Positions 53,551 to 64,000 of a stretch of 64,000 bases of DNA are shown here, piece by piece. The notes beneath the pieces are model-generated. The model had not been told where the DNA came from. It made no database searches and saw nothing but the letters and a program-made list of their open reading frames with translations. Origin of the DNA: a virus; IMG/VR virus record IMGVR_UViG_3300046167_000554, positions 32,001 to 96,000 of that record. The stretch is one strand, 5' to 3'. A program made the position numbers and the translations under genes. How positions within the stretch are numbered: position 1 is the first letter of the stretch; every line of letters starts with the position of its first letter.

Positions 53551-56500
53551 ATGCCTGAAAAGACAGACTTAAATATATCACCTTATTACGATGACTACTC
53601 AGAGGATAAGAACTTTCATAAGGTTCTTTATCGTGCTGGTCGTCCTATTCAAGCAAGAGAGTTAACTCAATCTCAATCAATTTTACAAAATCAAATTGAG
53701 AGATTTGGTGACCACATGTTTGAAGAGGGTTCTATTGTTCAAGGAGCTCAAACAGATGTCGACATGGAAATGTACTATGTCAAAGTCAAGAGTGCAAATC
53801 CGAATGATAGTGGAACTGCAACATCTGAGACTTATAGAACGTCTTTCCATGGTAAACTTGTCATCGGTCAAACTTCAGGAGTAGTTGCAAAGGTATTATC
53901 ATCAAGTGCAGAAACTTCAACAGATAAGATGACCTTGTTTGTTAAGTATATGAGACAGGGAACAGATTCTGCAAACTCATTTAAATTTACTGCAAACGAA
54001 GAACTACGTGAATGTCAAGTAGATTCAGGTGGAACATATTCAGAAGTATCAAACAATAACGAATTCCAAGTAGAAACTACAGCAAATGCACCTTGTGGTA
54101 TTGGTTCAATGTCAAAAATATCAGAAGGTATTATATATCTTAGGGGTTTCTTTGTCAAGGTTGATGCACAAGAATTAATACTAGAGAAGTATTCATTCAA
54201 ACCATCATATAGAATTGGTTTGACAATTACAGAAAGTATGGTAGACTCATCTTCTGATACCTCTTTACAAGATAATTCAACAGGTACATCAAACGAAAAC
54301 GCTGCTGGTGCAGATAGACTTAAAGTTGGATTAACACTTTCTAAGTTCACCATTACAGAAACTACAGATGCAAACTTTGTAGAACTTGCAAGAGTTAATC
54401 AAGGTGTCATTGAGATGAAGGTCAATAGACCTATGTACAATGCAATTGAAAACACACTTGCAAGAAGAACATTCGATGCAAATGGTGACTTTATTGTAAC
54501 ACAATTCACTCAATCAATGAGAGAACATTTAGATAACACTATTAACAGAGGGTTCTATCCTGCTAAAAATGGTGGAGATGAAAGTCAATTTGTTATGCAA
54601 ATATCGCCAGGTAAAGCATACGTTAGAGGTTATGAGATTGATAAGATTGGAACAACAACAGTTCCATTCCCAAAAGCAAGAACAACTAAGTCACTTGCAA
54701 ACACTAAGACACCTATTAGATTAGGAAACAAATTAAAAGTTAAAAATGCACACTCATTTCCCGAGTTTGGTAATGAGTCTTCAGGACAATCACAATCACC
54801 TTTCGGTGTTGTAAAGATTTATGATGCAGTTGTAGCTTCAGTAGGAACAGAGAATGCAAGTGGACATATTGGTTTTGCAAGAGTAAGAGATATTGACCAT
54901 AAGTCAGGAACTTCATCAAGTGGAGTATTTGCAAATAGTTCTATCTTTAACATGTACATGTTCGATATTAAGATGTTCACAAAACTTACTGGAACTGCAA
55001 GTGGAACAATCAATGTTGGTGATAAAGTAACAGGAAACGAAAGTAATGCAACTGGTATAGTTGCATATAAATCTAATAATGACCTTTATCTACATGACGT
55101 AATAGGTTCATTCTTAACTTCAGGTACAGAAGATTTAACATTTGGAAACTCAACAGGTAGTTTTGCAAACATATCTGCAGTAAGAAGTTATAATATTGAT
55201 AGAGCAAGGTCTCTATTCCAAGCACCAAAAGTCGGTGGTTCTGCACAAAAATTTACTGCAGACATTAGTTTAGATGCAGACAAAGTGTTGAGTGGAACAC
55301 TTAACATGACTCTTAATAGTCCAACTGTAACAGGTTTTGGAACAAGGTTCTCTGCAGAATTAAAAGAAGGAGATATCCTAGTTGATGGTGTTGGTAATGA
55401 GAGAATTATTCAGTCGTTCAATGCAGACTTTAGTGAGATTACCTTAACAGATGGTGCAGTTGCAACATACAGTGGTAATGTAACAAGAAGACGTGCAAAA
55501 CTAGATGACCAAGACCAAACTGCAAACATATTTGCATGGCCTAGAAACTGGGTTAAGACACATGATGCAGACTTTATAAAAGTAAGAAGACAACAAACAG
55601 AAACAATTTCATCTTCAGGTGCAATACAAATATCACAAACAGATGGTGCATTTGAAGCTAGAAATGCAGACAACTTTAGTATATCAGTTGTAGATGTAAC
55701 TGGTGCAACTTCACCAACACTAGGAAATGGTGACATACTAAACATAGAAGATTATACAAGTGCATCTCCTACAGAAAATGGAGATGGTCAGAACATTTCA
55801 ATCTCAGGATTTGGAGCTGCAAACGAAGATGTTATTCTTAAAGTAACATACTCTATTTTAATTGCAGACCCCGATGCAAGAAGTAAAGACCATAGAAAAG
55901 GAAGGGTTCTAAAAGTAAGTGGAGATAGAAGTGGTTCTTACACTGGTGTGTATGGTTCTGCATTTGCAGATAAAGAAATTACACTAGGTGTTGCAGACGT
56001 ATTTAAGATACATGCTATCTATGAAGGAACAGGGGGAACAACACCTCTTTCTCCTAACGCAACATTTGCTAATACAGTAGGAACGTTTGCAAACTATGAG
56101 ACAATCGTAGGACAAACATCAGATGCACGTGCAGTCATTATAGACTTTAACGCAGGTGCAACATCATATTACTATATGATATCAGGAGTATTTACCGAAG
56201 ATGAGTCTATTGTAGGACAAACTTCAGGTGCAACAGGAACAGTAGATAGTGTATCACAAGGTTCACCAAATATCAAAAACAGATACTTCTTTGACAATGG
56301 TCAAAGAGATGGTTACTATGACTTAGGTAAAATATCACTTAAGCCTGGCGAACCAGCACCTTCAAACTCTATTATTATAGTGTTTGATTACTTTGAAGCA
56401 GGAGCAGGTGACTTCTTTGACGTTGGTTCTTATGACGAGAGTCTTTATAAAGAGATTCCAGTTTACTCACCAAACAAAGTAGACTTGGGTGGATTAGAAC

Positions 56501-59500
56501 CCGATGGAACATTTGAACTTTCAGATTGTGTTGACTTTAGACCAGTTGCTGGTATTGTTCACAATGATACTGATTTTGGAACTGCACCTATGAATGTTGC
56601 AAGTCCAACCGACTTATCAACTGCAATTCAGTTTGCACCATTCGGATATGAAACTGGAACAAGTTTCGATAGTTCTAGAACAGGTATTTCACAAACTAAT
56701 GCATCAACACCCGATACACCTATCAATGGTTCAACAGTTCAAGGTGATATCACTTTCTATGTTGGAAGAATTGATAAACTATTCTTACATCAATCAGGTA
56801 TATTCCAAATAGCAACAGGGATACCAGCTTTATCTCCAACCAAACCAAAGGTTATTGATAATGCAATTGAACTATTCGAATTACAAATACCACCTTACAC
56901 TGCAAAACTTGACAGTATAAGAGTAAGGTCACAAGACCATAGACGATATACCATGAAGGATATCGGTAAGATAAACAACAGGGTTACTAACCTTGAAAGA
57001 GTTACATCTCTTTCTTTATTAGAAAAAGATACACAAACAAAACAGATACTAGATGCAGATGGATTCGATAGATTCAAGTCAGGTTTCTTAGTTGATAACT
57101 TTAGAGGTCATAAGATTGGTGATGTAAATCATCCCGACTATAGAGTTGCTATTGACACTAAACTAGGTGTACTAAGACCACAATCTTATTCACAATTCTT
57201 TGACATGACACTGAATACTGCATCATCTCAAAACTTTACACAAACTGGTGATTTAATCACCTTACCATATAGTGAAGTTAGTTATGTTAATCAAAGTAAA
57301 GCATCAAGACATATTAATGTTAACCCATACCATGTGTTTGCATTTATTGGAACTGTAAAGTTAACACCCGAATCAGATATTTGGAATGATAGTGAAAGAT
57401 TACCTGAAGTTAAAATTAACAGAGAAGGTAACTTTGATGCAGTCATGTCAGAAAATGCTAATGCAATGGGAACAGTTTGGAACTCATGGCAAACCACATG
57501 GGCAGGAGAACCTTCAGTAGTTTCATCAGAGGTATCTGCAACTTCTAATGGTTCATGGAGTGGAGACCCATCACAAGGTGGTGAATGGGTAGCAGGACTT
57601 GAGATTACTAGAGAGATTACAGAGACACCTGAAATACAAACAAGAACAGGTGTAACTACAAGTGTTGTAGAAGATATTGTTGAAACAAGAAACGATAGAA
57701 TTGTAAGTGTTGCACTTATACCTTTCATTCGTTCAAGAACGATTGAGATTGATGCAACAAACTTGAAACCAAATTCAAACCATTACTTCTACTTCGATAA
57801 TATTGCAGTAGACAAATATGTTAGACCACATAGTGCAACATATTCACAAGACAGTGGTGTAACAACAACATCATATTGTAAAACAGATGGTAATGGTAGA
57901 CTTAGAGCATTCTTTACAATACCTAATAATGATACAGAAAGGTTCCCAACAGGACAAAGAGAGTTAAGAGTAACATCTTCTTTCTATAACCTAAGTAACC
58001 CTGCGTCTAATGGTAGTGGAATGTATCAAGCACAAGGATTATTGCAATCATCACAAACAGAGATTACTGCTACAAGAAATGGTAGAGTTATTCTTGACAG
58101 AGTTAGGGGTGAGAGAACAATTAATAGAAGAGGTGAAAGACTTGCAACATCAACATTTGATGAGAATGCACCACCAATACCAGTTGACCAAACACCACCA
58201 ATTCTTGACCCAATTGATGAGTTACCACCAGTACCACCTAGAGGGCCACAATTACCACCACCACCGCCACCGCCACCACCAATCGTGCCACCAATATTAC
58301 CACCAGTAATTGATAGACCAGTGCCGATAGAACTACCAATCATAATAGACGATAGGGGCCCTAATGTCAGAGACTTCGTGTTAGTACCTGATGGAAGGTT
58401 TGTGAGTTCAAGATTAGAAAGAGGTTGGGGTGACCCACTTGCACAATCATTCTTGGTTGAAGCAGCGGGTGGAATGATGATGTCATCAATAGACATATTC
58501 TTCCAATCAAAAGACGCTAACTTACCAGTATCAGTAGATATAAGAAACATGGTAAATGGATATCCTGGCCAGACAATATTACCATTCTCAACAGTGACTA
58601 AAAATCCTGAAGATGTTAATGTCTCAGAAGATGGTGCAACTGCAACAACATTTACATTTGACTCACCAGTTCTTCTAGAAGAAGATTGTGAATATTGTTT
58701 CGTAGTATACTCAAACTCAAATGAATATGAGTGTTTCATATCTAGAATGGGTGAAACAGACCTTGCAACAAGTCAAACAATTAGTGGACAACCATACGCA
58801 GGTTCGTTGTTTATGTCTCAGAATGCATCCACATGGACTGCAGAACAGACTGATGACCTCAAGTTTAACATGAAGATTGCTAAATTTGATACATCTAAAA
58901 CCCCTGTATTATACTTTGAAAATAATGACTTGTCAAGTGCAAAATTACAAGAGAGTCCAATAGAAACATTTAGTGGACAAACATATGTTAAGGTATACAA
59001 CTATATGCATGGTATGTACAACACTGCATCTAATGTAACACTTTCGGGTGTAACAGGAGATAAGACAGGTTGTGTTATGACTATAGGAACACCTAGTGTA
59101 ACAGGAACACCTAATAATGGAACCTTTACGGGTAAAGCATCAACAGGTGGAACAGGAACAGGATTGACATTCGATATAACTGTAGTTGACAATGCAATAA
59201 CAAGTTGTACAATTGCAACTACTGGAAGTGGATATACAGCTGCAGACTCAATCACTATTACAGATTTTGATGGTGCAACTACAGCTGATGCAACTGTAAC
59301 AGTAAGTACTGTTGAAGACACATTAGGTGGAATACCAGTTAATGCAATTAACAAAACATTTACTACAATTGCAAATATGGGTATCGACTCATTCACTGTA
59401 GTACCCGACTTGTCACCATATAACCTTAAAACAAGTTATGCATCTGATGACTCAACATTGGGTGGTGGTGCAAATGTAATGTCAACACGAAACTATTACT

Positions 59501-60252
59501 TTGATGCAATTCATACAATGATACCAAATGTTCAATTAAAGAACACTAATATCTTTGTTGCAGTTAAGACAACCCCTATGAATTCACCTGAAGGGTCAAT
59601 CAGTGGAACAGTATATTCTAGAAGAACAAGTTCAGAGTTTATAACACTGAATGATAACGTGTTCTTTGATTCACCAAGTATTATTGCATCTCCAATTAAT
59701 GAAGTAAGTGAAATGTCAAGTACTAAATCATTTGAATGTGCAGTACAATTACAATCATACAACCCTAATTTATCCCCAATTATTGATACAGGGTCTATTG
59801 GTGCAATTGCAATTGCAAACAGACTAAACAACATAGATACCAGTGCAGATGTACCTACAGGAACCACGTATGTGAGTTCTAACGAACCCGAAGGAGATAA
59901 CAATGCAATGGTGTACGTCACACGTAAGGTGAACCTTAAAACACCTGCTAGTTCAATTAGAGTAACAGCAGATGTCTTTAGACCACCTACAACAGATGTG
60001 AAGTTTATGTATAAGATTATTAAGAACGATGAAGACACACCATTAGATGATATCGGTTTCTCATACTTTAATACAGATGGTTCACCCGATATATCAACAG
60101 AAGCAGATGCAAGAAACTTTAAAGAATATGAATTCACTGCAGATGATTTGCCTGAGTTTAGTTCATTCATTATTAAAATCGTAGGACAAGGAGAAAGTAC
60201 ATCAGTAGTACCATTGGTATCTGCATTGAGATGTATTGCACTTGCAACGTAA
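53551..60252 (+). CDS. Large virion structural protein (DUF4815/VrlC-like)
   Basis: N..PYYDD, QARELT..QSILQ.Q, A.GADRLK, RTFD..G.F, GKAYV.G, RYTM.DIG, DRFK.GF.VDNF, DPLAQSF and W...Q..DLKF motifs. Confidence 0.85.
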   Translation: MPEKTDLNISPYYDDYSEDKNFHKVLYRAGRPIQARELTQSQSILQNQIERFGDHMFEEGSIVQGAQTDVDMEMYYVKVKSANPNDSGTATSETYRTSFHGKLVIGQTSGVVAKVLSSSAETSTDKMTLFVKYMRQGTDSANSFKFTANEELRECQVDSGGTYSEVSNNNEFQVETTANAPCGIGSMSKISEGIIYLRGFFVKVDAQELILEKYSFKPSYRIGLTITESMVDSSSDTSLQDNSTGTSNENAAGADRLKVGLTLSKFTITETTDANFVELARVNQGVIEMKVNRPMYNAIENTLARRTFDANGDFIVTQFTQSMREHLDNTINRGFYPAKNGGDESQFVMQISPGKAYVRGYEIDKIGTTTVPFPKARTTKSLANTKTPIRLGNKLKVKNAHSFPEFGNESSGQSQSPFGVVKIYDAVVASVGTENASGHIGFARVRDIDHKSGTSSSGVFANSSIFNMYMFDIKMFTKLTGTASGTINVGDKVTGNESNATGIVAYKSNNDLYLHDVIGSFLTSGTEDLTFGNSTGSFANISAVRSYNIDRARSLFQAPKVGGSAQKFTADISLDADKVLSGTLNMTLNSPTVTGFGTRFSAELKEGDILVDGVGNERIIQSFNADFSEITLTDGAVATYSGNVTRRRAKLDDQDQTANIFAWPRNWVKTHDADFIKVRRQQTETISSSGAIQISQTDGAFEARNADNFSISVVDVTGATSPTLGNGDILNIEDYTSASPTENGDGQNISISGFGAANEDVILKVTYSILIADPDARSKDHRKGRVLKVSGDRSGSYTGVYGSAFADKEITLGVADVFKIHAIYEGTGGTTPLSPNATFANTVGTFANYETIVGQTSDARAVIIDFNAGATSYYYMISGVFTEDESIVGQTSGATGTVDSVSQGSPNIKNRYFFDNGQRDGYYDLGKISLKPGEPAPSNSIIIVFDYFEAGAGDFFDVGSYDESLYKEIPVYSPNKVDLGGLEPDGTFELSDCVDFRPVAGIVHNDTDFGTAPMNVASPTDLSTAIQFAPFGYETGTSFDSSRTGISQTNASTPDTPINGSTVQGDITFYVGRIDKLFLHQSGIFQIATGIPALSPTKPKVIDNAIELFELQIPPYTAKLDSIRVRSQDHRRYTMKDIGKINNRVTNLERVTSLSLLEKDTQTKQILDADGFDRFKSGFLVDNFRGHKIGDVNHPDYRVAIDTKLGVLRPQSYSQFFDMTLNTASSQNFTQTGDLITLPYSEVSYVNQSKASRHINVNPYHVFAFIGTVKLTPESDIWNDSERLPEVKINREGNFDAVMSENANAMGTVWNSWQTTWAGEPSVVSSEVSATSNGSWSGDPSQGGEWVAGLEITREITETPEIQTRTGVTTSVVEDIVETRNDRIVSVALIPFIRSRTIEIDATNLKPNSNHYFYFDNIAVDKYVRPHSATYSQDSGVTTTSYCKTDGNGRLRAFFTIPNNDTERFPTGQRELRVTSSFYNLSNPASNGSGMYQAQGLLQSSQTEITATRNGRVILDRVRGERTINRRGERLATSTFDENAPPIPVDQTPPILDPIDELPPVPPRGPQLPPPPPPPPPIVPPILPPVIDRPVPIELPIIIDDRGPNVRDFVLVPDGRFVSSRLERGWGDPLAQSFLVEAAGGMMMSSIDIFFQSKDANLPVSVDIRNMVNGYPGQTILPFSTVTKNPEDVNVSEDGATATTFTFDSPVLLEEDCEYCFVVYSNSNEYECFISRMGETDLATSQTISGQPYAGSLFMSQNASTWTAEQTDDLKFNMKIAKFDTSKTPVLYFENNDLSSAKLQESPIETFSGQTYVKVYNYMHGMYNTASNVTLSGVTGDKTGCVMTIGTPSVTGTPNNGTFTGKASTGGTGTGLTFDITVVDNAITSCTIATTGSGYTAADSITITDFDGATTADATVTVSTVEDTLGGIPVNAINKTFTTIANMGIDSFTVVPDLSPYNLKTSYASDDSTLGGGANVMSTRNYYFDAIHTMIPNVQLKNTNIFVAVKTTPMNSPEGSISGTVYSRRTSSEFITLNDNVFFDSPSIIASPINEVSEMSSTKSFECAVQLQSYNPNLSPIIDTGSIGAIAIANRLNNIDTSADVPTGTTYVSSNEPEGDNNAMVYVTRKVNLKTPASSIRVTADVFRPPTTDVKFMYKIIKNDEDTPLDDIGFSYFNTDGSPDISTEADARNFKEYEFTADDLPEFSSFIIKIVGQGESTSVVPLVSALRCIALAT

Positions 60253-60458
60253 TGGGAGTAAAGGTAGACGGACACTCAAAACTAGAACGAGATGAGAGTT
60301 CACACGCAATAGTTAATACTGATATGGAACAGTATAGACTTGCAAAGAAACGAAAAGAAGTATTTCATAATCAAAAAAATGAAATAAATACATTAAAGGA
60401 AGAAGTATCTGAAATAAAAGGACTTCTTCAGAATATTTTAGGAAAATTAAATGGCTAA
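60252..60458 (+). CDS. Small coiled-coil protein conserved after DUF4815 genes
   Basis: KV.G...L.RD..S.AI.N.D...Y; LK.E..EIK.LL. Confidence 0.75.
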   Translation: MGVKVDGHSKLERDESSHAIVNTDMEQYRLAKKRKEVFHNQKNEINTLKEEVSEIKGLLQNILGKLNG

Positions 60459-61704
60459 GACTGTAGACACATTCAGTACTATTGAAGACTTCAGAGTCAG
60501 GTATAACGAACTTGCAACTGATGTCGGAGATAAGTCGGGACTAAGAACTCAACAAACGGGTACTATTATTGATGCTGTAAATTCTATAGAAGATAAATCA
60601 TTCTTCTTCCAAGAGTTTATTTACAATGTAACATCATCACAAACAGTATTCAATGGAGACGATGCATTTGATAATTCCTTACTTTTCAGAAGAGATAGAA
60701 TTCAAGTATTCCATATAGATGGTGGAGTAAGTAAACACTTACTAGAGGGTAATGACTACTCTATTGCATCACCTGATGGAAATCTTCATAAAGAAATTCA
60801 ATTAAACGTAGCTGCAGAAAGTGGAGATAAACTAGTTGTTTACTCATTCACTGGTTCTTACTTAGGAACTGTTTCAAGTGGAACAGGTGCAGTTGGATAC
60901 TTCTCAGAAACATCTGCAAACACAATCTATAATAACAATGATAGTGGAATAATTTTAAATGGAACTTCAGTAGGAAGAACTACAGCACTTGAATCAGGTT
61001 ATGAAATACAATTAGCAGGTGAAACATACGTAGAAGATAACGTAACACTTGCAACAAGTAAGACACTTACTGCACCTACTTTGACTACAGGTGGTGCATC
61101 TATTACAGGAACAACTGGAACAGGATTTACAAACATAACATCCACATTGTTTAGTGGTAATGTTAATGGTACAACTGCAACCTTATCGGGTACAGTTACT
61201 GGTGGTTCTTTAACAGATGGTACTTTAACTTCTACAGGTGGTACTATTACTGGTGCAGCTTCTATTACATCTACAAAATTCGTAGGTGATGTCTATAAGG
61301 ATGATGGAACCACAAAGATTTTAGAAAACTCAACGGGTGCATTGACTGGTACAGTATCTAGTTTATCAAACCATGATACCGATGACCTTTCAGAAGGTAC
61401 TGCAAAATTCTTTACTGATGCAAGAGCAAGAAGTGCAATTAGTGTTGGTGGAGATTTAACATATAATAGTAGTACAGGTGTGATTTCCTTTACTCAAACT
61501 GAAGGTGATATCACTGCAATTACTACAAATAGTAGTAGTGGTTTGTCAGGTGGAGTCACAGTAGGAGCAGCTTCTTTGTCTGTAAATACATCGAATGGTG
61601 TGAAAAAAGTAAGTAATAATGTAGTTTTAGATTATGAGACTGTAAGTTCTGCACCAAGTAGTGTTGGTTCAACTTCAACTGGTCACTTATGGTTTGTGAT
61701 ATGA
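60451..61704 (+). CDS. Fibre protein (fibritin-like N-terminus, Thr/Gly-rich shaft)
   Basis: T.E.FR...N..A.DVGD...L.T...II.AVN; TDDLSEG..FFT.ARAR.AIS; C-terminal AP......G.LWF. Confidence 0.7.
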   Translation: MAKTVDTFSTIEDFRVRYNELATDVGDKSGLRTQQTGTIIDAVNSIEDKSFFFQEFIYNVTSSQTVFNGDDAFDNSLLFRRDRIQVFHIDGGVSKHLLEGNDYSIASPDGNLHKEIQLNVAAESGDKLVVYSFTGSYLGTVSSGTGAVGYFSETSANTIYNNNDSGIILNGTSVGRTTALESGYEIQLAGETYVEDNVTLATSKTLTAPTLTTGGASITGTTGTGFTNITSTLFSGNVNGTTATLSGTVTGGSLTDGTLTSTGGTITGAASITSTKFVGDVYKDDGTTKILENSTGALTGTVSSLSNHDTDDLSEGTAKFFTDARARSAISVGGDLTYNSSTGVISFTQTEGDITAITTNSSSGLSGGVTVGAASLSVNTSNGVKKVSNNVVLDYETVSSAPSSVGSTSTGHLWFVI

Positions 61705-61705
61705 T

Positions 61706-63013
61706 ATGTCAGACGAAATATATTTAAATACTGGTACAACGATACAACAGCCCTATCAAGCGCAAGGGCCTGCTAACGCACAACAACCCGTTATTGCACA
61801 ACAGGTTAGAAACTATACTGCTAATGCAAGACAACCTAGTGAGTATCAGACTCGTACACCATTTACATATAGAAATCCAAGTAATGCACGTCAACCTAGT
61901 ATAAGGAATACACAAAGTCCCTTTACATATGCAAGACAAGGTCAATCACCATTTACGTATAACTTTAGGTCACCTAGTACATATACAAGACAGGGTCAAA
62001 CACCATTTACATACAGTCATAGACAACCTATAACATATGCAAGACAGGGTCAAACACCATTTACGTATGATTATCAGTCACCTTCAACATATAGAACCCC
62101 TGTAAATCAACAAGAACCTAATATAAGGAGTAAACAATCTCCTTTTACATATGGTCATCCAGCAGCTGCCCAATCACCTTTTACATATAACTATAGAAGT
62201 CCGTTTACGTATCAAAGAACTGGTCAGTCACCATTTACATATCAAGCAACTGGGACAACACCAGTGATATACAGTTACCAACAACCTTTTCCGTATATTG
62301 CAAATGGACAGCAACCAAACATAAGGAATGCACAACAACCATATCCATATAGTACTACACAAGCATCTTCCCATCAGCAACCAAATTTAGCAAGTGGAAG
62401 ACAACCTTACATATATGCAGCGTACACTTATCACAATACTGGTTCTACAGGAACTACTGCCCCAGTATATCAAATAGATGTTAGTTCACAAGACCAAAAT
62501 GATGCGAATGCTTATATTTGGGTTAAAACTGTAGGAAGTAATTTAGAAGTATATGTATCTGCAAACTTCGACAATTATGCTGACTTTACATCAACAAGTG
62601 GTGGCAGTGGGACTATAAGTACTAACACTAATTATAAAGTTGCAACATTGGTAGATGGAGCTGGGTATAAAGTAAGATATACAGCAGGTAGTTACTATAA
62701 TATAACACAAGAGGGTGGTGAACCTACAGTAATAGGATTAGTACTAGCAAGTAATGTTCCAAACTCAACCAGTACAACTGGTGGTGTTACTATAGGAACA
62801 AACTCACTTTGGGGGTCAGGTAGTGTTCATTATGTACGTTCTAGAGTTCGTGCTTTGCCAGATGAAGGATTTGAAGGAATCGGAAGTGCTGGTGCGTCTG
62901 TAGATATAAATCTATTCTTTGATAAAACAGGAGCTACAACTATCTCATACCCAATTTCAATGATGTGTGAAACAGATTTCCCTGAAGAGGAAGAAGAGGA
63001 AGAAGGAGTATAA
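61706..63013 (+). CDS. Gln/Pro/Tyr repeat fibre protein A (22 repeat units plus C-terminal beta-rich domain)
   Basis: Units ending (Q/R)xP across residues 17-234; globular C-terminal domain; poly-Glu tail. Confidence 0.75.
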   Translation: MSDEIYLNTGTTIQQPYQAQGPANAQQPVIAQQVRNYTANARQPSEYQTRTPFTYRNPSNARQPSIRNTQSPFTYARQGQSPFTYNFRSPSTYTRQGQTPFTYSHRQPITYARQGQTPFTYDYQSPSTYRTPVNQQEPNIRSKQSPFTYGHPAAAQSPFTYNYRSPFTYQRTGQSPFTYQATGTTPVIYSYQQPFPYIANGQQPNIRNAQQPYPYSTTQASSHQQPNLASGRQPYIYAAYTYHNTGSTGTTAPVYQIDVSSQDQNDANAYIWVKTVGSNLEVYVSANFDNYADFTSTSGGSGTISTNTNYKVATLVDGAGYKVRYTAGSYYNITQEGGEPTVIGLVLASNVPNSTSTTGGVTIGTNSLWGSGSVHYVRSRVRALPDEGFEGIGSAGASVDINLFFDKTGATTISYPISMMCETDFPEEEEEEEGV

Positions 63014-63016
63014 ACC

Positions 63017-63838
63017 ATGCCTACAGGACAACAGCCATATATATACCAACACCAAATCGTGTTCCAACAGGTAACTATTACTGAGCTTCAAGGACAGTCT
63101 CCTTTTACTTATCAACATCAGTCTCCTTTTACTTATCAAAATTCAGGAAGAAATCCTATTGCTAATGTATCTGCACAACAACCTTTTCCGTATATTGCAA
63201 ATGGACAGCAACCTTATCCATATATTGCAAATGGACAAGAACCAAACATAAGGAATGCACAACAACAGTTCTTTTATCAAGACCAAAGGAATGCAAGACA
63301 ACCTATTATCTATCAACATAGGTCTCCACTTACATATAGAAATCCTGTTAATGCACAAAATCCTATAAGTGGAGTTAATGCACAACAACCTTACCCTTAC
63401 ATTGCAAATGGTCAAAGTCCATATATTGCAGATGCACAACAACCATATCCGTATACTGCAAATGCACAAAATCCAAGTATCGAATCTGCACAACAACCTT
63501 ATCCATATATTGCAAATGCAAGAAACCCTAGTACATATCAACATAGGTCTCCACTTACGTATAGGAATCCTGTATCGGGTCAACAACCTCATATTGTAAA
63601 TAAACAATCACCATTTTTCTATACAGGTTCTTACCAAGTAGCGTATGCATATAGAAGTCCATTCATTGCACAAGTGCAACAACCCTCAACTAGACCTGTA
63701 GGCCCAGTTGCAAAAGTAAAAGGAATATACCGAAATAATAACGGAACTGTAGAGAAAGTAAACCAAGTATATGTAAATGATGGTGGTTCTTTAGAAAAAA
63801 TTCATCAATCTGTACCTACTGCTCAGTTTCAGAAATAA
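63017..63838 (+). CDS. Gln/Pro/Tyr repeat fibre protein B (22 repeat units, mirror image of protein A)
   Basis: SD AGGAG; units across residues 8-227; C-terminal GIY.N..G....V..VYVN.GG. Confidence 0.75.
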   Translation: MPTGQQPYIYQHQIVFQQVTITELQGQSPFTYQHQSPFTYQNSGRNPIANVSAQQPFPYIANGQQPYPYIANGQEPNIRNAQQQFFYQDQRNARQPIIYQHRSPLTYRNPVNAQNPISGVNAQQPYPYIANGQSPYIADAQQPYPYTANAQNPSIESAQQPYPYIANARNPSTYQHRSPLTYRNPVSGQQPHIVNKQSPFFYTGSYQVAYAYRSPFIAQVQQPSTRPVGPVAKVKGIYRNNNGTVEKVNQVYVNDGGSLEKIHQSVPTAQFQK

Positions 63839-63843
63839 TTCTG

Positions 63844-63851
63844 TATAAATA
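63844..63851 (+). promoter_or_regulatory. Late promoter
   Basis: TATAAATA 5 nt before an ATG. Confidence 0.8.
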
Positions 63852-63856
63852 GTTAT

Positions 63857-64000
63857 ATGGCTATACTTGCAAACTTATTCATCGACCAAGGCACCGACTT
63901 TTCTATTACTGTAGATGTAACAGATAGTAATGGTGAAATTTTAAATATGTCAGGATATTCTTCTGCTGGTCAAATTAGAAAGACTTATGAGTCTTCAACA
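63857..64000 (+). CDS. Conserved T4-like virion protein (5' part; runs off the window)
   Basis: MAILANLFIDQGTDFSITVDV...SGY...QIRK.Y.S. Confidence 0.8.
   Translation, partial: MAILANLFIDQGTDFSITVDVTDSNGEILNMSGYSSAGQIRKTYESST

Follow-up and report, generated by a model that had tools for sequence, protein, structure and literature searches.

Mirror-ordered, complementary repeat arrays in two adjacent genes of a marine T4-like myovirus: a candidate two-chain antiparallel tail-fibre shaft

Two adjacent genes of an uncultured marine T4-like myovirus, referred to here as A and B, encode arrays of proline-terminated units that run in mirror order and, aligned in this way, set units of opposite type against each other. 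The mirror is real and lies far beyond chance. As an explanation of the whole we consider it probable, at roughly 80%, that A and B each supply one half of a single tail-fibre shaft with antiparallel chains. The position of the genes in a fibre block, together with their translational coupling, leads us to read the pair as an out-and-back beta shaft. The relevant features of the window, i.e. the whole stretch of 64,000 nucleotides that was analysed, are the following.

53551..60252, + strand: VrlC-like giant baseplate/structural protein, 2233 aa (DUF4815, phrog_358)
60451..61704, + strand: upstream fibre gene, 417 aa, C-terminal tail ...GHLWFVI; putative adapter or proximal shaft segment to which the A/B base would attach (spacing, motif in relatives)
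61706-63013, + strand: gene A, putative outgoing chain, 435 aa
61706..61753, + strand: A N-terminal cap, residues 1-16, conserved, proposed proximal end (invariant residues in relatives)
61754..62407, + strand: A outgoing array, residues 17-234, 22 proline-terminated units of 8-16 residues (unit cutting, mirror scoring)
62408..63010, + strand: A C-terminal domain, residues 235-435, hypervariable, predicted all-beta, acidic tail; proposed distal head (few relatives)
63005..63019, + strand: GGAG ribosome-binding site within the end of A, TAA stop at 63011-63013 and ATG of B at 63017 (sequence)
63017-63838, + strand: gene B, putative returning chain, 273 aa
63017..63037, + strand: B N-terminal cap, residues 1-7, short, proposed distal end (unit cutting)
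63038..63697, + strand: B returning array, residues 8-227, 22 units, mirror complement of the A array (unit cutting, family pairing)
63698..63835, + strand: B C-terminal beta domain, residues 228-273, AKVKG ... KIHQSVP motif; proposed docking knob beside the A N-cap (invariant residues)
63857..64000, + strand: start of a 110-aa ORF that leaves the window, LtfC-like beta-sandwich; candidate fibre accessory or assembly protein (phrog_3304, phrog_1084)

A gp8 wedge gene, the VrlC-like DUF4815 protein and flanking fibre-like genes place the pair, downstream of VrlC, in a T4-like tail-fibre module, and A and B are part of the tail-fibre block of this virus. The VrlC-like protein matches Pfam DUF4815 with E 3e-62 as well as phrog_358, and it is 33-36% identical to 'virulence associated protein' genes of cyanophages and to Methylophilales phage Melnitz. 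Tail fibres follow VrlC (PMC7029224). In the window, the host-recognition fibre block begins with the VrlC-like gene. No Pfam or PHROG match was obtained for the upstream fibre gene; among the relatives, its C-terminal ...GHLWFVI motif is found ahead of almost all type-1 pairs and fusions. On the other side, the 110-aa ORF matches phrog_3304, annotated as 'L-shaped tail fiber protein assembly' (E 1e-22), and phrog_1084 (E 3e-28), with Pfam LtfC below the cut-off at E 9e-4, and in L017 the fused gene is followed by an ORF of 111 aa in the corresponding position.

The spacing is 1 nt from the stop of the upstream fibre gene to the ATG of A and 3 nt from A to B. From the GGAG inside A and the proximity of its stop codon to the B start we read a tight translational coupling, and no terminator-like site is present within 60000-64000. 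Stop-codon readthrough joining A to B was considered and discarded; the frame is common to both genes here, but in L004 the genes overlap in different frames. Antisense ORFs over the arrays (e.g. 63143-63607, - strand) were set aside as by-products of repeat composition, their translations being unrelated.

The first-pass annotation had cut both arrays by eye into 22 units and claimed that the unit lengths of A, reversed, reproduce those of B. On re-examination the lengths land on the units as given and end exactly at residue 234 of A and residue 227 of B, and the two B boundaries described as lacking the proline, QIV and QQQ, do lack it. With units of 9 counted as 8, A reversed equals B at 22/22 positions. 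In the permutation test that the annotation had proposed, 0/10^6 shuffles of the B units reached 22 matches (mean 7, maximum 18), and when only the 12 long units were shuffled with the short ones fixed, 33/10^6 gave a full match (analytic expectation 1 in 27,720). We also scored the chains on all proline boundaries, free of any segmentation, in comparison with shuffles. The reversed alignment scored 19.5 and the forward one 13.5, against 6.8 +/- 1.2 for the shuffles with a maximum of 11.5, which corresponds to z = 10.2. The forward alignment of unit lengths gave 11 matches at its best offset, and part of the mirror is common to it because the central run of long-unit lengths, 10,10,10,12,12,10,10,10, is itself a palindrome. 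The opposite-type pairing likewise held, in 10/10 cases for the 8/9-mers and 6/6 for the 10-mers, so that 16/16 short units of the window face the opposite family.

A mirror of this kind might conceivably arise in proteins that never touch, each forming a separate parallel homotrimer, if repeat shuffling, shared ancestry or chance had shaped the arrays. The palindromic length pattern and the forward score well above the shuffles lend this some weight, and so do the direct DNA repeats of 60-78% identity that are common to A and B. Inverted DNA matches between the genes are trivial, at 14-20 nt, so that DNA inversion as the origin of the mirror is ruled out, and a reversed order of protein units cannot come from duplication or inversion of DNA. 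The comparative data presented below disfavour this account, which would leave unexplained the strict opposite-family pairing, the mirrored compensatory indels, the partner-specific covariation and the equal array spans; we regard it as extremely improbable.

Returning to A and B as halves of one shaft, homologous gene pairs were collected from viral metagenomes. They number 51 distinct pairs, mostly with z = 5-19 in mirror scoring, and pairs with differing unit patterns and lengths retain the mirror, as the annotation had asked to see. In 28 representatives the paired spans measure 84 to 532 residues, most of them having the same length in both chains (e.g. 180/180, 324/324, 392/392 and 532/532). 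Matched segments were of equal length in 700/742 cases, and segment lengths in both chains were even in 99.4%, as required of a continuous strand if it is to keep its faces. Proline positions are mirrored between the chains in most pairs. A weak mirror, with z below 3 by proline-based cutting, was seen in the diverged pairs L024, L025, L041, L058, L059 and L060, for which cognate and crossed scores are also close.

The units are 6, 8 or 10 residues in size, longer ones being fusions of these, and belong to two families. The TY family has the consensus F-T-Y-x-x-R-x-P, with R-Q-G in its longer forms; the IAN/AN family has Y-I-A-N-A-Q-x-P, preceded by Y-P in its longer forms. Over all aligned units, the 8-mers paired as TY8-IAN8 in 553 cases, TY8-TY8 in 3 and IAN8-IAN8 in 0. 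For the 10-mers there were 258 TY10-IAN10 pairings as compared to 3 and 0 like-with-like, and for the 6-mers 421 TY6-AN6 and 0 AN6-AN6.

In close relatives an insertion in one chain is accompanied by a complementary one at the mirror position of the other, in line with the expectation that gains in A be matched in B. The window genome holds a second pair, C and D, likewise divided into two genes at the proposed distal tip, and relative to L055 this pair has an 8+10 TY insertion in chain 1, 13 units from the N-end, together with a 10+8 IAN insertion in chain 2, 13 units from the C-end. Between L018 and L036 a 6+6 insertion is found at the same distance of 11 units from the N-end and from the C-end.

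Residue covariation between facing units was analyzed in 28 non-redundant pairs against a within-protein permutation null. In the 8-mers it was strongest for T1-I7 (z 20), T7-I1 (z 12) and T5-I3 (z 11), all odd positions with i+j = 8, and in the 6-mers for T1-I5 (z 14) and T5-I1 (z 13), values that overstate the number of independent events because unit pairs are phylogenetically non-independent. The 10-mers showed T1-I7 and T1-I9. With the partner shifted by one or two units the mutual information mostly drops 2- to 4-fold or more. Covariation only between exact mirror partners, and of the N-part of one unit with the C-part of the other, points to an antiparallel contact at the local level in which the prolines oppose each other. 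Note that T5/T7 and I1/I3 also covary inside their own units, which leaves the precise register (i+j = n) less secure than the polarity.

A cross-beta sandwich would likewise require facing elements to be equally long and to have complementary side chains. In such a sandwich each chain would form a beta meander on its own, the units being its rungs and the prolines lying at its turns, and the two sheets would stack by their faces, A_i above B_(23-i), giving a short fibre of about 10 nm in place of a 70-nm ribbon. Such a packing could keep the local antiparallel orientation constant, and it is compatible with the family code, the covariation and the length data. We nevertheless hold it to be unlikely, for reasons drawn from sequence alone. 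Neighbouring units within a chain are irregular, with an 8 beside a 10, 12 or 16, while lengths are strictly matched across chains, the opposite of what an intrachain hairpin requires; F or Y rather than the turn-typical G, N or D follows the proline in the unit profiles; and the nearly uniform even lengths, with covariation of same-parity positions at i+j = n, agree better with a continuous strand.

The one-shaft reading gains further from natural single-chain fusions, of which more than 30 were found. They join an A-type N-end with its N-cap to a B-type C-end with its C-domain and are themselves mirrored, as in P0123, where residues 17-152 match 301-436 with z 7.6. In nine genomes with two pairs, all type-2 pairs and most type-1 pairs scored higher with the cognate partner than when crossed. 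The type-2 pairs carry a KVK-type motif similar to that of B, on the first chain instead.

These fusions bear on the role of B as a template or assembly chaperone that pairs transiently with the A array, setting its fold or register, and is then released, leaving a mature fibre of A only. Phage fibres often need chaperones encoded just downstream, such as T4 gp38 and gp57A (PMC3004832), and B does lie directly downstream of A. Against this, the fusions hold both arms in one polypeptide, B itself ends in a conserved domain, the position of the KVK-type motif on the first chain in type-2 pairs suggests a shared structural end, and a separate LtfC-like accessory gene follows B. A chaperone role for B thus appears very unlikely.

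The homologue mirrors, the indels, the polarity of the covariation and the fusions together support the annotation's arrangement of A as the outgoing and B as the returning strand in the antiparallel register A_i:B_(23-i), and the retention of the mirror despite differing patterns supports its idea that the irregular unit order acts as a barcode for the register. In the architecture that we propose, A would run from the virion outwards and B would return alongside it in the opposite direction, both arrays being continuous series of short beta-strand units that each end in proline. Each TY unit would be apposed to an equally long IAN/AN unit, with the prolines of both chains opposed at the joints, and since the lengths vary irregularly and units of one family avoid each other, one register and the cognate partner alone would fit. 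The mirrored arrangement would bring the A N-cap and the B C-terminal domain together at the proximal end, where the product of the preceding fibre gene is their probable docking site, and would place the hypervariable A C-terminal domain with the B N-terminus at the distal tip. Binding of A to B, their beta conformation and the binding of a receptor are what we infer from these comparisons, as is a shaft length of about 70 nm for extended chains. Beta sheets do not usually contain prolines at intervals of 6-10 residues, and this counts against the proposed beta shaft. That three A/B hairpins assemble into a six-stranded needle like the gp37 tip is a guess, to which we give somewhat worse than even odds.

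A more specific version of the proposal, for which we see only slightly less than an even chance, is a peptide 'duplex' of antiparallel strands over hundreds of residues, held by a modular TY versus IAN/AN code in which unit order is the address. The code would operate on units of 6, 8 or 10 residues and include finer rules, e.g. that H/Y-R-S units face N-I-R units and N-R-Q units face Y-I-A units. The order of the units would fix the register, set the length of the fibre in steps of one unit pair and prevent cross-pairing of two pairs in the same virion. In that case the arrays would amount to a natural programmable alphabet of beta-strand pairing.

The annotation had known of no description of an intergenic complementary repeat code, and none turned up in the literature, Pfam, PHROG or the PDB; our literature searches likewise found no description of such a two-chain fibre. 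In Pfam and PHROGs A and B were without matches save for phrog_13729, of unknown function, to the C-terminal part of B (E 0.006). In the PDB sequence search A and C had no match at E <= 1, and the profile of the B C-terminal part returned only the unrelated 7txx_A (E 0.048). Searches of INPHARED phage records by blastn and tblastn gave no match, even for the non-repetitive C-terminal part of B at E <= 1; that these records contain no cultured carrier of the genes weighs against the one-shaft reading.

Among the closest known systems is the needle domain of gp37, the tip protein of the T4 long tail fibre (Bartual et al.), where the outgoing strand leads to a receptor-binding head and the returning strand lies antiparallel to it; it shares the distal head, the proximal position of both chain ends and the T4-like phage background with the sequence-derived topology of A/B. 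An out-and-back course with a head at the turn is indicated for A/B by the mirror order, the covariation and the fusions. The two nevertheless appear analogous rather than homologous. No sequence similarity of A/B to gp37 emerged from the Pfam, PHROG and PDB searches, and gp37 is a single chain with about 50 residues per arm, in contrast to two gene products (one chain in relatives) with 84-532 residues, and lacks the modular proline-delimited units and the two-family pairing code. The trimer is known for gp37 and a guess for A/B. Needles of the gp37 type carry HxH metal-binding motifs along their length; reading the translations, we found no H-x-H motif in the A and B arrays. We count A/B as a new class and not as a variant of the gp37 needle, because there is no homology and because the two-gene split and the pairing code are without described precedent.

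In heterospecific coiled-coil zippers and collagen heterotrimers, residues recurring periodically along two or three extended chains determine which partners associate and in what register. A/B would have such a code in common with them, but those systems are alpha-helical or polyproline-II, usually parallel and of uniform period 7 or 3, whereas the evidence in A/B is for antiparallel beta-type pairing, units of variable even length and facing prolines. The C-terminal needle of T4 gp5, a triple-stranded beta-helix (PMC3004832), resembles A/B in its fibrous beta structure and 8-residue repeats, but it is a parallel three-start homotrimer with one repeat type and has no second chain, mirror order or heterotypic complementarity; Pfam and PHROG gave no sequence match between gp5 and A/B. 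In A/B, two unit families avoid like-with-like pairing and their order is reversed between chains, unlike the repeats of parallel homotrimeric fibres.

If the chains do zip, they would represent a new principle of fibrous proteins, a heteromeric, antiparallel, length-programmable beta shaft in which a unit code sets register and partner. This would explain the variation in fibre length and the swapping of receptor-binding heads in abundant uncultured marine myoviruses, and would make many unannotated "hypothetical proteins" of ocean viromes recognisable as fibre parts. Structural biology would gain a fold without a solved relative, and protein designers a natural system that does with beta strands what leucine zippers or base pairing do elsewhere.

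Conservation differs strongly between the chain ends. In 38 relatives, single-chain fusions included, residues M1, I5, N8, Q14 and Q15 of the A cap are invariant, and the same number of relatives share A97, K98, V99, K100, N105, K112, H128, V131 and P132 (alignment A3) of the B C-terminal domain. The A C-terminal domain, in contrast, has only 5 relatives among 1.84 billion representatives and is without a match in Pfam or the PDB, and the ESM Atlas gave sub-threshold leads only, including the head against Laminin_G_3 at 0.80, which is chance level. A position of this domain at the distal tip would fit both the topology and its extreme variability, and together with the B N-terminus it is likely to form a putative receptor-binding head.

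An AlphaFold2 model of the domain was all-beta, but with pLDDT 35 it was unusable, as was that of a natural fusion, calculated from a 31-sequence alignment (mean pLDDT 40.6). In the latter, strand pairing was confined to the two proximal ends and had low confidence, and the B C-terminal domain was the only part with pLDDT 62-74. A Hint domain of the intein-like autoprocessing kind, C-terminal after a Gly-rich linker and a Cys, had no match in A of the window; sub-threshold to moderate matches to it were obtained for the relatives P0008, P0011, P0012 and P0018 and for A of L021.

The genes for A and B, each with 22 repeat units that mostly end in proline, form part of the following arrangement:

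53551-60252, + strand: VrlC-like protein of 2233 aa, with a DUF4815 region; 33-36% identity to Methylophilales phage Melnitz and to genes that cyanophage records annotate as 'virulence associated protein'
60451-61704, + strand: fibre gene of 417 aa, directly after the VrlC-like gene
61706-63013, + strand: A, 435 aa
63017-63838, + strand: B, 273 aa
63857 to past the window end, + strand (58-390 of L089, the downstream stretch of the same genome): ORF of 110 aa directly after B; phrog_3304 'L-shaped tail fiber protein assembly', LtfC-like beta-sandwich
L089 6974-8071 and 8082-9044 (G000:C1:102773-104843), 6.8 kb past the window end: second pair, 365 + 320 aa

We reproduced exactly the units into which the first-pass annotation had cut A and B, and its claim that the reversed lengths of A are those of B holds at 22 of 22 positions, with 9 counted as 8. 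In the permutation test that it had proposed, 10^6 shuffles of the B units averaged 7 matches and never exceeded 18; when the 12 long units alone were shuffled, 33 of 10^6 trials reached a complete match. The best forward, unreversed offset gave 11 matches, and a cut-free score using all proline boundaries reached 19.5 for the reversed and 13.5 for the forward order, with shuffles at 6.8 ± 1.2. Note that the central part of the length pattern is palindromic and that direct DNA repeats are common to A and B, so that the forward score is also above random; within this pair alone, the mirror signal is carried by the flanks and by the rule that facing units are of opposite type, which applied to 10/10 pairs of 8/9-mers and 6/6 pairs of 10-mers. 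No inverted DNA repeat was found between A and B. DNA inversion as a source of the mirror was rejected, as such a repeat is missing and inverting DNA cannot reverse the order of protein units.

A search of IMG/VR with B as the query yielded 79 loci, nearly all with two adjacent repeat genes, and 51 distinct pairs. The mirror is kept across differing unit patterns and lengths, in line with what had been predicted for homologues. At L003 the reverse-shared run is 8,8,10,8,10,8,8,8,10,8,10,8,10,10,8,10,8,12,8, including a triple 8-mer that the window pair lacks, and at L037 532 residues (69 units) in one chain mirror 532 in the other. Against unit shuffles, z was mostly 5-19 for the distinct pairs; a small number of diverged, proline-poor pairs scored weakly (L024, L025, L041, L058, L059, L060). 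Among 28 representatives the paired spans cover 84-532 residues and are mostly exactly equal between chains (180/180, 324/324, 392/392, 532/532). Matched segments had the same length in 700/742 cases, the unit pairs being non-independent samples, and 99.4% of all segment lengths, counted over both chains, are even. The expectation that gains and losses be mirrored was borne out by compensatory insertions at mirrored places. In the cleanest case, the second pair of this genome against its close relative L055, chain 1 has an additional 8+10 TY block 13 units from the N-end and chain 2 an additional 10+8 IAN block 13 units from the C-end; between L018 and L036, a 6+6 insertion lies 11 units from the N-end in chain 1 and 11 from the C-end in chain 2.

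The units fall into two families, TY and IAN/AN. TY units open with aromatic-T-Y and occur as 6-mers, as 8-mers whose sixth residue is R and as 10-mers with R-Q-G. In the IAN 8-mers position 2 is I and positions 3 and 5 hold small residues, the IAN 10-mers are a Y-P prefix plus an IAN 8-mer, and the AN 6-mers read V-N-A-Q-x-P. The 12-mers of the first-pass annotation are a TY 6-mer plus an AN 6-mer and therefore self-complementary. A finer sub-code places units with H/Y5 and S7 opposite N-I-R units, and those with N5 and Q7 opposite Y-I-A units.

Pairings of unit types, counted over all aligned units
TY8 with IAN8: 553
TY8 with TY8: 3
IAN8 with IAN8: 0
TY10 with IAN10: 258
TY10 with TY10: 3
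IAN10 with IAN10: 0
TY6 with AN6: 421
AN6 with AN6: 0
TY6 with TY6 (G-Y subtype): 63

Covariation was analyzed in 28 non-redundant pairs, against partners permuted within one protein only. In 8-mers, position 1 of TY units (T1) covaries with I5-I7 of IAN units (z 13-20), as do both T5 and T7 with I1 and I3 (z 11-12); the signal is strongest for odd positions with i+j = 8. T1-I5 (z 14) and T5-I1 (z 13) covary in 6-mers, T1-I7 and T1-I9 in 10-mers. When the partner is displaced by 1 or 2 units, mutual information drops, in most cases by 2- to 4-fold or more, and the N-terminal part of a unit would thus contact the C-terminal part of its exact mirror partner. These data point to local antiparallel contact between mirror partners. 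With i+j = n the prolines of both chains come to lie opposite each other, and even lengths keep both faces constant along the array: the predicted faces are F1 and Y3 against Y1, A3 and A5 on one side, and T2 and R6 against I2 and N4 on the other. Large residues opposite small ones (Y3-A5, R6-I2) would rationalise why like units do not pair.

In the model that we propose, built entirely on sequence comparison, A and B would form an out-and-back antiparallel beta shaft in which the order of complementary units fixes both the register and the choice of partner. Extended at ~0.33 nm per residue, it would measure ~70 nm here and ~175 nm for L037. The main rival, a face-to-face meander sandwich, is disfavoured by the irregular lengths of neighbouring units inside one chain, by the residue after the proline, F or Y, and by the even-length rule. 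The nearest known analogue of the proposed shaft is the T4 gp37 needle, which is six-stranded and antiparallel, from three fold-back chains (PMC9659904); by analogy, our guess for the copy number is three A/B hairpins. A and B showed no homology to gp37 or gp5, nor to any family in PDB, Pfam or PHROG.

More than 30 natural fusions, 446-610 aa long, have A's N-cap at the start and B's C-terminal domain at the end, and are self-mirrored (relative protein P0123, residues 17-152 against 301-436, equal lengths, z 7.6). The first 16 residues of A and the last ~46 of B are conserved, and given an antiparallel pair A's N-cap and B's C-terminal part would lie at the same end. At almost every locus with A/B-like pairs or fusions (type-1), split or fused, the preceding fibre gene has the conserved C-terminal motif G-H-L-W-F-V-I (~40 loci including type-2; window 61663-61704), and before type-2 pairs, those like the second pair, it ends in G-D-L-W-V-L-Y-S. 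These ends probably join the proximal fibre to the base of the zipper. A's C-terminal domain has hardly any relatives, 5 among 1.84 billion representatives, and together with B's N-terminus would be placed at the end opposite the caps. The predicted layout is as expected, with conserved attachment and a fast-evolving putative receptor-binding tip.

A itself ends in an acidic tail (62984-63010) of seven consecutive Glu, then G-V, and the first chain of the second pair in G-E-E-P. The first-chain relatives P0008, P0011, P0012, P0018 and L021:4268-5953 carry at the C-terminal end a Hint/intein-like domain, preceded by a Gly-rich linker and a Cys. This domain, with Pfam scores under the curated cut-offs where they were rechecked, finishes in H-N plus a non-nucleophile and in L021 is placed behind the head domain. 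This suggests self-cleaving rather than splicing C-terminal processing at the putative distal tip of these relatives, perhaps like that of the self-cleaving chaperone domains found in other phage fibres.

The second pair is likewise mirror-complementary and more regular than A/B, with paired arrays of 278/278 residues. It is capped by a KVK-type N-terminal domain on the first chain and a short conserved tail on the second; a similar KVK-type motif is found at the second chain's C-terminus in A/B. The fibre gene upstream of it ends in the G-D-L-W-V-L-Y-S form. Across the 9 genomes with both types, the mirror-plus-complement score was higher for cognate than for crossed chains in all type-2 and most type-1 pairs (this genome: 34.5 and 70 cognate, 23.5 and 19 crossed).

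The whole viral record of 153.5 kb, of which the window is G000:C1:32001-96000, is assigned to a marine T4-like myovirus. Its gp8 baseplate wedge gene has ~35% identity with Pelagibacter phage HTVC008M and cyanomyoviruses, and a gp5/lysozyme-like hub gene is also encoded. No carrier of the A/B genes was found among cultured phages (INPHARED records, blastn and tblastn). VrlC is followed in pelagi- and cyanomyophages by tail-fibre genes, those of the 'host recognition cluster' (PMC7029224); here the four genes directly 3' of the VrlC-like gene are the 417-aa fibre gene, A, B and the 110-aa ORF. The VrlC-like protein has a proline-rich stretch at residues ~1370-1400, with nine consecutive P, between the DUF4815 region and the C-terminal part. 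The four genes are probably co-transcribed and translationally coupled, because the gaps are 1 nt (fibre gene to A) and 3 nt (A to B), a GGAG lies within A's 3' end, 8 nt upstream of B's ATG, and no terminator-like site was found in 60000-64000. The 110-aa ORF may encode an accessory or assembly factor for the zipper fibre; in L017, a 111-aa ORF occupies the same position behind the fused gene.

A and B share a reading frame with only TAA and one codon between them (63011-63019), and readthrough would give a fused chain; we set this aside as a significant feature, as the genes at L004 overlap in different frames. Between the two pairs, at L089:782-6922, lie several more fibre-like genes, two of which begin M-A-T-V-I-x-x-K-R-S, and two small ORFs with hits to PHROGs named 'baseplate wedge tail fiber protein connector'. 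This gene set indicates a multi-part fibre chain.
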